Below, in pieces: positions 3,201-9,200 of a stretch of 10,287 nt of DNA. Source of the DNA: a virus (lineage: Duplodnaviria > Heunggongvirae > Uroviricota > Caudoviricetes); IMG/VR virus record IMGVR_UViG_2541047728_000006, positions 1-10,287 of that record; one strand, 5' to 3'. The position numbers are program-made. Position 1 is the first letter of the stretch. Every line of letters begins with the position of its first letter.

Positions 3201-6200
3201 GTGTATTTTTCAAACATCGCGCGTTTATCGAGCAATATACGCATAAACAACGCCGCGCCGACGGTATTGGTGACCATCATTGGCGCAGCAATATTACTCA
3301 CCAGACGCACCGCATCTTCATAAGGTCGGGCGATCGCCAGGATAATCAACATTTGCACCATTTCAGCGACGAACGTGACGGCACCGGCGGTAATGGGGTT
3401 AAAGACTTTATCAGTGCGCCCGCGACGGATCAGGATGCTGTGTACCAGGCCACCGAGCAATCCTTCAACGATGGTCGAGATCATGCAACTTAGCGCGGTC
3501 ATGCCCCCCATCGAATATCGATGTAACCCGCCGGTCAGACCAACCAGCCCACCGACGACCGGACCGCCGAGTAAGCCGCCCATTACCGCACCTATCGCAC
3601 GGGTATTGGCAATAGAATCGTCAATGTGCAACCCAAACCAGGTGCCCATGATGCAGAAGATGGAAAAGACGATGTAGCAGAGAAATTTATGCGGCAGACG
3701 AACCGTGACCTGCATTAACGGTATGAATAATGGCGTTTTACTCATTAACCACGCAATGACTAAAAAAACGCACATCTGCTGAAGCAGCAGCAACACCAGA
3801 TTAAAATCGTACATACCCGCAAACCACACTTCCCTTTAAAACGCGTAACATACATTGCTTGCGTTTAACTTTCTTTGAACTCTTGCAGAAAAATGAGAAT
3901 TCGTGAGTACGATCACTCAAAATCGCCTGGCAAAAATAAAATCACCCTATAGATGCACAAAAAACGGGCAAAACTACCTGGTTCGCAAAACTGCGTCTAA
4001 AGTTAAACCGGGACCTCGCGAGCAAGGGTGAGACGATGGCGCTTTACACAATTGGTGAAGTGGCGTTGCTTTGTGATATTAACCCTGTCACGTTACGCGC
4101 GTGACGCAACATTTTTAAAAATCGACGAAGATCGTCCAGGAGCGCCATTTTTCAAGGGTTGGACAGATGATTCGTTTTCGATGTCGACGAACTTCGACGG
4201 ATTTCGCCGATAAAAAGTGTCCCATACATGCCCCATAGATGCCCCATAGGCAATATTACCAATTGACACTGGTTATCCACACAGCTAAAAATAACACCTG
4301 TACATAACTACAGTTACAGGAGGGGGTTATGCGTGTTGAGATCTGTATCGCTAAAGAAAAAATCAGCAAAATGCCGAAAGGTTCTGTTCCTGCTCTGCAG
4401 CAAGAAATGCTGCGCCGCATAGGTAAGCGATATGACGATGCAGATGTGATCGTTAAATCTGCCAGCAATGATGGACTCACCATTTTAAGAGCCGTCGATA
4501 AAGAATCAGCACTGGAGTTCGTACAGGAAACACTACAGGAAGTCTGGCAAACCGCGGACGACTGGTTTATGCAATAACGGGATCATAATCACTGTAATGA
4601 CCTGTTTTGTATGACATTCTTAAAAGGCATAACAACGAGCTTGTCGTTTCAAGCGACTTCTTCTGGTTGGGGAGCCTGAGTGCTCCCCTTTTTTTCAGCT
4701 AAAAATCAGCATACAGCCATACAATCCCGCACAGGCCACCACCGGCACCACAAAATCCATCAGACTGGCCACATTCCACACACGCGGATCAAAACCGCCC
4801 CACCACGGCATGTTCTGTCTGTGACCATCACCAAAACGCTTAATCCAGCGATATTCTGCCTGGGTATGTTCTCGGGCAATAAAGAACGTACAACCCGCTA
4901 TCGCTCCGTAAACCCAGTCACCGGTAATGCACCCGACCAGCCCCTGCACGGCTACTGCACAAATTGCATGAAGTATCGGCGTGATATCCATCTGCTCCCC
5001 TTAAAACCACTCCCTGAGCGGGCGCTCTGGTGTAACCACCCACTCACGGAACACGGATTCATCAAAGCCATCGTCAAGAAGACGAATATTAACAAAGTAC
5101 CCTTCGTCTCGCGTGTATTCAGGCTCCCCGTCAGCAGAAACACCTGACTCACTGAACGTAAAACCAATCTCATCAACCAGAACGGCATTCTGCAGCTCTT
5201 CGTCCTCTTCCCAGTTAAGTTTCCTGAGAAATGCCCTGAAATCTGCTTTATCACTGAAACGCAACGTGAAATCTCTCACTCCACAACCTCCCCAAGCTGC
5301 GCATCTGTTAGCTCTTTATGCCAGAGACGAAAATTCCTCACATGCCCAAATAAATGGCGTAATCCTGCTGTAGTTTGTCCACCAATGCGAATGGTTGCTG
5401 TACTCCGGATATATTCCCATGTGGTTTTTGTTTCGCTGGATATACGCCCGTTACTTACTGCACATGTAGACTGATCTGACTTTACACGCATCCCCATAAC
5501 CATTTTTTTCAACGATGCGTTTTCGTTAACACGCCTATTTGATCCACCAATATCGCAATAAGGAAATCCGTCTGGCCCATCTGCCGAAGATCCGAAGCCA
5601 AGAATAATAGCCGCTCCGGTTTGATGACCGCCGGTATCAAAAACACGTGGCGCTGCATTTGGCGTTTTATACCAGTTCTTATGTACCTCACAAAGAACCG
5701 TAAAAGGAAGATTATAAAGATTATTCTTAATCGGAACTGTAACCATATCGCTTGCGCGCGTCGCCGCCGTCGTTCCTGATATAATAAAAGATGATACACA
5801 CGAACCATCCTCAACCTGAGGGGTGGCCAGATAAATATAGTCACCAGATTCAACGACACCACCTTTTTTTGGTGCGTATTGTATTGCAGAGGTTATGTAA
5901 GTTTCTTTACTTGCTTGAATCGTTGCCTCTACAAAAATCCAGCCCGTAGCTTCATCTTTGTTAACTCGTGCGGTGAGCCTGTCGGCAGCTACACCGGTGA
6001 TTTCAACCAATAAAGACCGCGTATTAACAATGGTATATCCAAGATTAGATGAAGCGCTGCCATCGAAGGCTTCAAACCTGATCCTTAACAGGAGTTCCAA
6101 ATCCGTTTTAAATCTGCACGATGTCGTCACACACTTATTATCGCCTGATACATCGACAGCCCCCGAGGTTGAAACTACTGCCATATTAAGGGTTGTACTT

Positions 6201-9200
6201 TGCCCAATCAGAGAATCGTTACAAACAAACTTTCCATAAGTAAAACCAAAACTATCAGTTCCAACCTCAGCGACATTCATATTTGCAGATTTACCCCAAG
6301 AAGCTGGAGTTGCTGAATTCAACATGTAGTTGGTTCGCTGACCTTCAATCAATAAACCTTCTTTTTCAAATCGTGGCTCATTAATTTCCGCCGTTTTCAG
6401 TTCGCCAGATTTGTTGATATATGTTGCCGTTGATGCGCGACTGAAATTAACCTGTTTATCACTGGCAACCTGAACCACATTATCGCCAATCTTCACTTTT
6501 TTATAACCCGGAGAATAGCCCGTAATCATATCCAGCGAATCATTAAAGGGTATCCACACATCCGGCAGCGGCTGTAAAACATATCTGTACGGCTCTGCTG
6601 TCTGGTTTGCGTATTCTCTGGCAGCATCTTCACTTGCTTTTGCTGCCGTCTGGCTTGCTGCCGATGCTTTCGCCGAGTTCGCCGCCGCTGTTTCGCTCAC
6701 CTTTGCGTTGGCTTCACTGTCTTTGGCATTCGTCTCACTGGTTTTCGCTGCCGTCTGGCTGGATTTTGCGTTTTTTTCGCTGGCCTTTGTGGCTGTCTCG
6801 CTATTTTTCGCGCTGGTTTCTGATTTTTTGGCTGCTGTCGCGGAGTTTGCCGATGCAGTCTGCGAGGCCGCTGCCGCCTGTGCGCTGTTAGCTGCATTCG
6901 TTTCTGAGGTTTTCGCCGCATTCTTCGATGAGGCTGCTGCCGTTTCGGATTTCTTTGCCGCCGCTGCACTCTGTGATGACGCTCCGGCATGACGTGCCAC
7001 TTCATTCACCATCAGCTCAAAACGGCGCAGTGCCTCCGGACGAACATCATCCTCCGTCATGGCGCCGAGAAAATCATTCAGCGTACCTGGTCTGGAACCT
7101 TCATAGACGGTAATGGTCCCGGCATGTGAAGGCGGAAAATCTTCAACCAGCAGGGTGACGCTGTACTGGCCATACTCAACATCCATGCTGTAACGCCCGG
7201 CTTCATCCGGATTTTCAGAGGCCACCGTGTTCACCACCACCGTGCTGCTGGTCCGTCTGGCCTTCAGCACAATGGTGCAGTTCTGTACTGGTTTTCCTGT
7301 GCCATCTTTAAGCACGCCAGAAATTTTTACTGTCATACTTTTCCACCAATAAAAAAAGCCCGCAGCAGTGACGCCACGGGCTTCAGGACAGTGTAACTTT
7401 ACGTTTCCTCAAACGCAGTTCACCCCATAAGGCGGATGAACCTGCGTATCATAACAATATTTACAGAAGATAAATCGGCGTCTGTTGTCAGAAACGGTAT
7501 CCGATACCAACAATAAATGCATCCGTTCGCCAGTCGCCACTACCGGAACCTTCATAAGCAATATCAATGGTCACGGATTCGGTCGGGTTAAACTGCACGC
7601 CAGCTCCCCACGCCAGAGACGTGTTGCTGTGGCGATCGTCATCACTTCCGGTCAGCACATCGTGCGTTTTCCCCTTGTTGTCAGTTACGCGGAGATAATC
7701 CCCGGAGAACGTCGACACACGGCTGTAAGCCACACCTGCCATCGCATAAGCACTGAACCATTCATTCACGCGTACAGATGGCCCCGCCATCACGCTGAAC
7801 CAGCGGTTACGCACTGAATCTTCATGCCAGCGGGTATCGCTGTAGTGCGTTTTTTGCTCATCCTCAGCATTGGCATAACTGAAGGACGTAATCAGCCCCA
7901 GCGCGTCCGTAAACTCATAACGGTATTTCACGTTAATCCCGTTCAGATTATCGCTGCCTGGCATATCAGTGTGGGTCTGAAGATACCCGGCGCTTAGTGT
8001 GGACTGATGCTCTGCTGCGCTCGCTGGCGTACCAGCGGCAACCAGCCAGACTACTGCGGACAGAATAACAGCACATAATTTACGCATAATTACCTCTCGC
8101 TTTTCTGCAATAAAAAAGGCGCCATTTCTGGCGCCCGTATTGGGGTTATAAAATTCAGCTAATCGTGATGCCTGCAGTGGCTTTCTTCATCACAACAACC
8201 AGCAAATCGCTGATACTTGCTGTGGGATACCAGCCATTTACCCACCATGCTGATACAGAAAACTCCAGCGTCATGTCGCCGCGACCAGCAGGCATATCAA
8301 TAACACCACTGTAAACCAGCGTATTATCCATCGCGGTACGGTTATAAATTTCAGCACCGTTTTTCTTCACTATCAGGCGGCATGACGAATAAGTATCGCT
8401 GTTCTCCCGCTCATGTCTGGCACCGCTGAAAGCCACCGCCGGAATAACAATCTGCCGGTTAAACGGCTGATCGTCATAAACCCTGACGGTAATGGTTCCT
8501 GATGGCCAACGCTTCGGTGCACGGGAGTCACGAGGGAAAGCCTTACCCACTGTTTTAACGAGATCGCCTTCAATCTGGTTTGCAGACAGTTTCCCTCTGA
8601 TGACACAGTTCTTGTTAATGGTGACATTATTGAGCGTGCCGGTATTCGCCGTGATGGCTCCACTGATATCCGCATTGCGGGCTGTCAGCCTGCCATCCGG
8701 CGTCAGGGAAAACGTCGGAGGATTGCCGGATGACGTGATGCTCACCGCAAACAGTCGCTTCAGGAACACGTCGTTCATGAACAGCTGATTCCCCTGCGCC
8801 ACAAACAGCGGCGTGGTGTTGCCGTTCTCCGGGGTAATCATCGCAATGCGATCGGCCTGCAGCAGAATGTTACTCAGGGTCTGACCATCAACATCCTCAA
8901 TCCCCGCGCCAATCCCGGCCACATAGGGAATACCGTTTTTTGTTTTCTGCACCTTCAGCATATACATGGCATTCAGCTCATTGCGCGTGTCTGACTGAAC
9001 CCGCTGGATTTGCTGTATGGTCACGGCCTGGTCACCCAGCTTTTTATCCGTGGTCGAGGTAATTTCACTCCCTTTTTTATCCACGTACTGGCGGACCTGT
9101 GCTATCTGTCGGGCGTTTTCTGACTGCCCCTGGCTGACAGTCTGTGAGATTTCACTGCTCACCCGGTCCACTTTCTGGCTCACCTGCGCGATGGCCAGTG

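Follow-up and report, generated by a model that had tools for sequence, protein, structure and literature searches.

What does a side tail fibre recognise when it is anchored and placed like Stf of phage lambda, but ends in a tip unrelated to that of lambda? The question is raised by an stf-like gene in a stretch of 10,287 nucleotides (nt) of the Caudoviricetes record IMGVR_UViG_2541047728_000006 in IMG/VR (positions 1-10,287; the whole stretch is hereafter called the window), the features of which are collected in Table 1. Its product of 686 amino acids (aa) belongs to the lambda Stf family by anchor, gene position and shaft, but not by tip or chaperone. We consider it likely that the protein is a side fibre of three modules, namely a collar, a coiled coil and a glycan-binding tip of two domains, supplied with a dedicated partner. 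It should be added that modular fibres of such kind are well known, that this one already bears generic names in RefSeq and PHROGs, and that it represents an ordinary and widespread type; the only point beyond existing annotation is the strictly linked gene for a 92-aa partner.

Modules of the fibre and their relatives

The open reading frame (ORF) of the fibre is uninterrupted, as an earlier note on this DNA had pointed out in distinction from stf of laboratory lambda, and full-length homologues of 685-687 aa are abundant. The same note had likened the N-terminal 115 or so residues to lambda Stf, and database searches agreed: residues 1-131 match PF08400, 'Prophage tail fibre N-terminal' (226 bits against a cut-off of 26.6, E 1.3e-67), residues 1-158 are 73% identical to lambda orf-401 (BLASTP), and identity to lambda over residues 1-117 is 85% (tblastn). 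Moreover, residues 1-94 align to residues 1-94 of the Ur-lambda Stf chain (9e7m_Ta, E 2.7e-47). Stf of Ur-lambda begins with the collar, which consists of 12 copies of residues 1-91 and surrounds the gpV/gpM junction; a linker (92-101) then leads to a trimeric coiled coil (102-393; PMC12617516). By homology to this solved structure, residues 1-94 of the window protein would anchor four trimeric fibres round the tail at the junction of tube and tip. Stf of Gifsy-1 was considered as a further characterised relative and rejected, being a lambda-type Stf about 51% identical to that of Ur-lambda (PMC12312913).

Behind the collar lies the degenerate Ala/Ser/Lys/Glu/Thr repeat that had been described before, with its DNA placed at 6608-6985 by our analysis (6617-6985 in the earlier note). 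It consists of 18 consecutive, unbroken heptads with the consensus T-A-A-K-x-S-E, where Ala occupies position 3 in 14 of the 18 and Ser position 6 in 17 of them, an a/d-type spacing that puts both residues at the core. Autocorrelation of the residues amounts to 0.43-0.48 at lags 7, 14, 21 and 28, against 0.09-0.20 at all other lags, and direct repeats in the underlying DNA are spaced by multiples of 21 nt. The shaft is locally similar to residues 205-286 of lambda Stf (P03764; PDB 9e7m/9mgh), which lie inside the proximal coiled coil of lambda (102-393). Because of this similarity and the right periodicity, we read it as a shorter coiled coil, about half as long as its counterpart (~145 coiled-coil residues vs 292 in the proximal domain of lambda). 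Residues ~102-245 are predicted from the sequence to form a trimeric alpha-helical coiled coil, of which the 118-243 block would measure ~19 nm at ~0.15 nm per residue. The hinge and the distal gp37-like needle of lambda Stf are absent here.

The 21-nt periodicity of the shaft DNA could be taken as the mark of a slippage-prone contingency tract that varies the length of the fibre, as the earlier note had supposed. This explanation was abandoned as extremely improbable, since Tandem Repeats Finder reported no array at score >=30, the 21-nt copies are merely 60-77% identical, and the length of the shaft is fixed: it is the same in 105 of 108 close relatives, the other three sharing one 5-aa, non-heptad deletion. 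Furthermore, the spacing between N-terminal and tip matches is equal in all but 3 of 45 viral loci, even with differing tips, and no copy-number polymorphism of heptad units was found among otherwise near-identical prophages.

The tip is of another kind than in lambda. The C-terminal ~400 residues had been said to be unlike the lambda Stf tip, and the C-terminal ~430 residues indeed gave no significant alignment to orf-314, the distal half of lambda Stf (best E 6.0). A scan of 1.8 billion representative proteins with residues 242-686 as query returned 2,492 relatives, many of which contain the ~430-aa module in full, preceded by N-terminal parts that differ greatly in length. An AlphaFold2 model of the tip, built as a monomer on an alignment of 46 relatives, is all-beta (mean predicted local distance difference test, pLDDT, 91.7; predicted template modelling score, pTM, 0.89) and shows the beta-sandwich jelly-roll fold that had been suspected. 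Its fold matches (scores in brackets) were the carbohydrate-binding domain 4 of arabinanase AbnA (19.4), baseplate wedge gp46 of phage Pa193 (17.6), the lectin-like HCN domains of botulinum and tetanus toxins (about 15-17), sialic-acid-binding modules of family CBM40 (15.8), pentraxins (14.7) and LamG/LNS domains (about 12); Foldseek returned concordant matches together with a tandem laminin LG4-5 pair. Identity to the concanavalin A (ConA)-like superfamily (PF13385, AbnA domain 4, CBM40, pentraxins, botulinum HCN) is 7-15%, and ligand-binding residues are not transferable. The baseplate wedge of Pa193 (gp46) and E217 (PDB 9b45, 8env) is a myovirus baseplate part and no fibre tip; it is 14% identical to the tip, and no homology of gp46 to it was detectable by sequence.

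Three parts can be told apart within the tip. The motifs LPDVWIPFNDSL, RASTATYINKSG and NEPRFE of the neck (residues 254-328) are near-invariant in 47 homologues, and the neck varies little among alleles. Domain 1 (residues 329-528) was recognised as GTA_spike_fiber (NCBIfam NF048003; 50.6 bits against a cut-off of 36), and residues 298-543 align to Rcc01080 (6tb9_F3, E 1.6e-6), the head spike fibre GhsB of the gene transfer agent of Rhodobacter capsulatus (RcGTA). Domain 2 (residues 543-686) is Laminin_G_3-like: PF13385 matches were obtained in 28 of the 47 homologues, six of which were scored individually (29-34.5 bits against a cut-off of 27.6), and they map to residues 543-682. The terminal segment LRHLFGHVRNFRLWHKELTDAQLGEV, which had been taken for the closing motif of LamG/concanavalin domains, falls at the end of the Laminin_G_3 profile in homologues, and its core, GH[IVL][RK][ND][FLI]R[ILV]W, is near-invariant across the tip family. 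Taken together, model, fold matches and family profiles suggest that residues ~254-686 form a globular tip with two ConA-like beta-sandwich units per chain. The signals for the intact ORF, the N-terminus, the repeat and the closing motif all lie well outside what chance would produce. The reading given in the earlier note was partly supported: it holds for the most part, including the predicted fold and the closing motif, but not for slippage.

Only the GTA_spike_fiber domain is common to this fibre and that of RcGTA. The latter is a single chain, attached to the capsid-vertex pentamer by an N-terminal (I/L)-G repeat instead of the Stf-type N-terminus found here, and its experimentally resolved part comprises residues 2-10 only (PMC7296036); it possesses no Stf collar, coiled coil or extra Laminin_G_3-like domain.

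We found the tip module in 218 phage records that represent at least six groups, among them lambdoid temperate phages, Drexlerviridae, Dhillonvirus, Queuovirinae, T5-like and rV5-like phages. Without exception, the proteins that carry it bear the annotation of a tail, side or lateral tail fibre; other members of the tip family carry tail-collar or TSP1/Gp66 N-domains. In bas25_0022 of VogelGryff/Bas25 (Seuratvirus) the tip is 83% identical and followed by a small partner ORF (43% identical), whereas the N-terminal anchor is different, with 29% identity only. Lateral fibres of KarlBarth, PeterMerian, SelmaRatti and the T5-like AKFV33/SP15 bear the same module at 36-72% identity, again with a small partner ORF behind it. 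Bas25 has in addition a 388-aa gene annotated as 'putative lateral tail fiber chaperone', which the window lacks; an extra gene of this kind, encoding 237-388 aa with a coiled-coil-like end, stands after the small partner in loci L005 (Bas25; 1537-2703), L129 (4138-5184) and L130 (4117-4827). It should also be added that this coliphage fibre module is carried by records labelled as Campylobacter or Listeria phages (MG065692, MG065676, MG065635 and similar ones) and by a 'Collinsella' metagenome bin (L132), labels that look like mis-assignment or contamination. Searchable literature contains no assigned receptor, solved structure or recognised helper for the tip module; papers on DT57C and Cronobacter fibres and the RBPseg atlas give no direct description of it, and the engineered Stf chimeras of the base-editing and Shiga toxin-producing E. 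coli papers bear tips of P2, K1F, K5, KL106 and phiV10, none of this type.

Across 63 distinct alleles, variability is concentrated at residues ~344-510, with residues 254-343 and 524-686 conserved. Pairwise codon analysis over window positions 5279-6577 revealed sub-domain mosaicism in L066, L064, L126 and L129, where either domain 1 (329-528) or domain 2 (543-686) is replaced between flanks identical at synonymous sites. In L066, neck and domain 2 are 100% identical to those of the window (proportion of synonymous differences, pS, 0-0.02), whereas domain 1 is 73% identical (pS 0.46); L064 displays the reverse pattern. No positive selection was seen, the ratio of nonsynonymous to synonymous substitution rates (dN/dS) being 0.05-0.44 and hence <0.5 in every computable block. 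The variability of the tip is thus recombinational, with diversity produced by cassette exchange and not by detectable selection on point mutations.

The partner gene at the fibre stop codon

The GTG start of the 92-aa ORF lies inside the stop codon of stf (GTGA) and is preceded, at a distance of 7 nt, by the Shine-Dalgarno sequence GGGGAGG (5287-5293). In the place of a standard Stf tip with its separate Tfa, which the earlier note had named as the alternative, neither a lambda-type tip nor a Tfa homologue was found: no similarity of the 92-aa ORF to Tfa was detected by BLASTP, and hhalign gave a probability of 0.6%. Instead of relying on lambda-type Tfa, the fibre would be co-translated with this dedicated partner. 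Tfa and T4 gp38/gp57A are likewise encoded by small, translationally coupled genes directly 3' of a fibre gene; the 92-aa protein, in turn, is unrelated to Tfa, gp38 or gp57A.

The linkage of partner and tip is strict in both directions. In each of the 45 viral loci with a relative of the small protein, the gene for it comes straight after one whose product has this tip. Conversely, the tip search gave 80 loci, 77 of which were readable through the fibre stop, and in 76 of these the small ORF begins within -7 to 0 nt of that stop; in the lone exception, the remaining contig is too short to hold it. In Buttiauxella, Leclercia and Silvania, small partners adjoin tips of no more than 29% identity, and a recognisable relative follows the tips of Aeromonas. 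The partner belongs to PHROG 1361, all 657 members of which are 'hypothetical', and its AlphaFold2 model (pLDDT 85) had no informative fold match. Its sequence type correlates with that of the neck, residues 254-328 (r 0.96), as against 0.04 for domain 1 and 0.44 for the adjacent domain 2, in a comparison that comprises a handful of independent lineages only and in which one locus breaks the pattern.

With the linkage itself directly observed, the partner is probably a dedicated helper in folding or assembly, or an accessory bound to the tip. We propose tentatively, and with less than even confidence, that it stands for a previously unrecognised class of dedicated helpers for ConA-like fibre tips, be it assembly chaperones or tip-bound accessories.

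Proposed ligand and competing explanations

Most likely, the tip binds a surface polysaccharide (O-antigen, lipopolysaccharide (LPS) core or capsule). Binding would be reversible and would enrich virions at the cell surface ahead of the contact between J and its receptor in the outer membrane. Specificity may shift when alleles exchange the 329-528 cassette by recombination, as their mosaic pattern suggests, and we hold with moderate confidence that the tip is a non-enzymatic glycan-binding one, with its specificity set by this cassette. In concordance with that, R. capsulatus is bound at its capsular polysaccharide with the help of the homologous head spike fibre of RcGTA, which is required for this step and which, when tagged, attaches to cells that have a capsule (PMC7296036; PMC10218006). 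VogelGryff/Bas25 depends on the LPS core (waaC, partly waaG) besides its terminal receptor LptD, and for lateral fibres of this sort the BASEL authors argued that surface glycans serve as the first receptors (PMC8594841).

Several points weigh against this interpretation. The window protein itself stays under the PF13385 threshold (no match at E <= 0.1 or <= 0.01), and its link to Laminin_G_3 is therefore transitive and structural. The model is monomeric, with the trimeric arrangement and the boundaries of the two domains deduced from secondary structure and profile ranges. The likeness to the RcGTA fibre is modest at the E-value given above, the LPS-core dependence of Bas25 is not assignable to its lateral fibre, and the syntenic prophage of E. 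coli IAI39 has a truncated tape-measure gene. Finally, LamG and ConA-like domains are capable of binding proteins, such folds mediate protein-protein contacts as well, and neurexin and laminin are among the fold matches of the tip.

The last point favours an outer-membrane protein, and not a glycan, as ligand, in the manner of lambda Stf, which has the N-terminus in common with the window protein and targets OmpC (PMC12617516). We regard this as unlikely: the top fold matches are carbohydrate-binding modules and lectins, the RcGTA homologue binds capsule, the tip has no similarity to the OmpC-binding tip of lambda, and glycan-specific fibres typically show such cassette-type hypervariability in many phage families (BASEL papers, PMC8594841). 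A tip that cleaves surface polysaccharide, as a glycanase or depolymerase with a GH16-like ConA fold, is very unlikely; a regular-expression search of the protein for the catalytic GH16 motif ExDxxE / ExDxE found none. One could also suspect a relic without present function in a decaying prophage, given the truncated tape-measure gene of IAI39 and the fact that the window displays only part of its prophage. That is highly improbable in view of the intact ORF, a dN/dS of ~0.2 against phage PhiR40_1, the occurrence of the same cassette in propagating phages, and the preserved Shine-Dalgarno sequences and translational coupling to the partner.

Genomic setting and wider relevance

In the window, chromosomal genes of E. 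coli (yehR, yehS, btsR, btsS) meet a lambdoid prophage at its tail-fibre end. The prophage is integrated in mlrA/yehV, and its stf lies downstream of J and lom, as in lambda. The mlrA/yehV gene starts at 4036 and is broken off after 22 codons at the attachment core CCTGTCACGTTACGCGCGTG (4084-4103), the site at which prophage VT1-Sakai is integrated as well; the gene of this curli regulator is thus interrupted by the prophage.

Table 1. Positions of the fibre gene, its modules and the neighbouring elements in the window
Feature	Position	Strand	Basis
C-terminal part of tail tip protein J, running off the window edge	8155-10287	-	ORF; gpJ annotation in IAI39, PhiR40_1
lom (Ail/Lom outer membrane protein), upstream neighbour of stf	7488-8087	-	PF06316, E 4.6e-128
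Intrinsic terminator-like hairpin between lom and stf, 13 bp stem + T run	7355-7384	-	Consensus scan + sequence
stf-like side tail fibre gene, 686 aa, intact	5276-7336	-	ORF; PHROG 1419 'tail protein', E 0
Collar (virion-attachment) domain, residues 1-94, homologous to Ur-lambda gpStfN	7055-7336	-	PDB 9e7m_Ta
Coiled-coil shaft (predicted trimeric), residues 118-243, 18 heptads	6608-6985	-	Autocorrelation + heptad listing
Conserved beta-strand neck, residues 254-328 (LPDVWIPFNDSL..., RASTATYINKSG, NEPRFE)	6353-6577	-	pLDDT 83-97, beta strands in model
Variable jelly-roll domain, GTA head-spike-fibre type, residues 329-528; candidate receptor-binding lobe	5753-6352	-	NF048003
Conserved Laminin_G_3-like (ConA-like) domain, residues 543-686	5279-5710	-	PF13385 matches in homologues
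Closing motif LRHLFGHVRNFRLWHKELTDAQLGEV, residues 659-684	5285-5362	-	End of Laminin_G_3 profile (~147-151 of 151) in homologues
Partner ORF, 92 aa, PHROG 1361	5001-5279	-	GTG start overlapping stf TGA stop
Predicted membrane protein, 98 aa, PHROG 1443	4695-4991	-	ORF
DinI-like gene	4329-4577	+	PF06183, E 6.7e-17

The fibre gene is 99.7% identical to genes of IAI39 and other E. coli chromosomes, and at least 80% of it was found in 498 of 5,426 complete E. coli genomes. Over 4200-8200, a segment that comprises the end of J, lom, stf and the two small ORFs, identity to the propagating phage PhiR40_1 amounts to 96%. The fibre gene of this phage bears the annotation 'side tail fiber protein'; the RefSeq name is 'prophage tail fiber N-terminal domain-containing protein'. 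The truncated tape-measure pseudogene of the IAI39 prophage lies at 18281-20061 of locus L002, and some carriers of the intact fibre gene are accordingly defective prophages.

The hairpin between lom and stf ends 18 nt ahead of the stf ATG and would, by analogy with lambda biology, be read through by antiterminated late transcription. Strong terminator-like hairpins stand on both sides of lom (7355-7384 and 8117-8136, minus strand), which gives the impression of a unit insulated on its own between J and stf. Within 3800-8200, an enrichment of terminator-like sites was noted, with 11 observed against 4.2 expected. An Rfam scan of the whole window gave no match.

The gene for the 98-aa membrane protein lies 3' of the partner ORF and is linked to the fibre cassette also in Escherichia ruysiae and at other loci (L129-L132). 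Its match to Phage_holin_8 stays below threshold (E 0.003); as a speculation, a role in lysogenic conversion or exclusion is conceivable. The DinI-like gene is preceded on the plus strand by a promoter-like site (4263-4292) and by a perfect LexA-box consensus CTGTACATAACTACAG (4298-4313), the VT1-Sakai counterpart of which carries an SOS box annotation. No PADLOC match was obtained for the three small downstream proteins.

Side and lateral fibres decide to which strains a phage can adsorb. The domain map presented here, with an exchangeable cassette (329-528) on a conserved scaffold (254-328 and 543-686), could be of use for the engineering of lambda-based delivery particles and for the prediction of host range. 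Since the partner gene is co-inherited with the tip, transplanting the tip onto engineered particles may require that the partner go with it.

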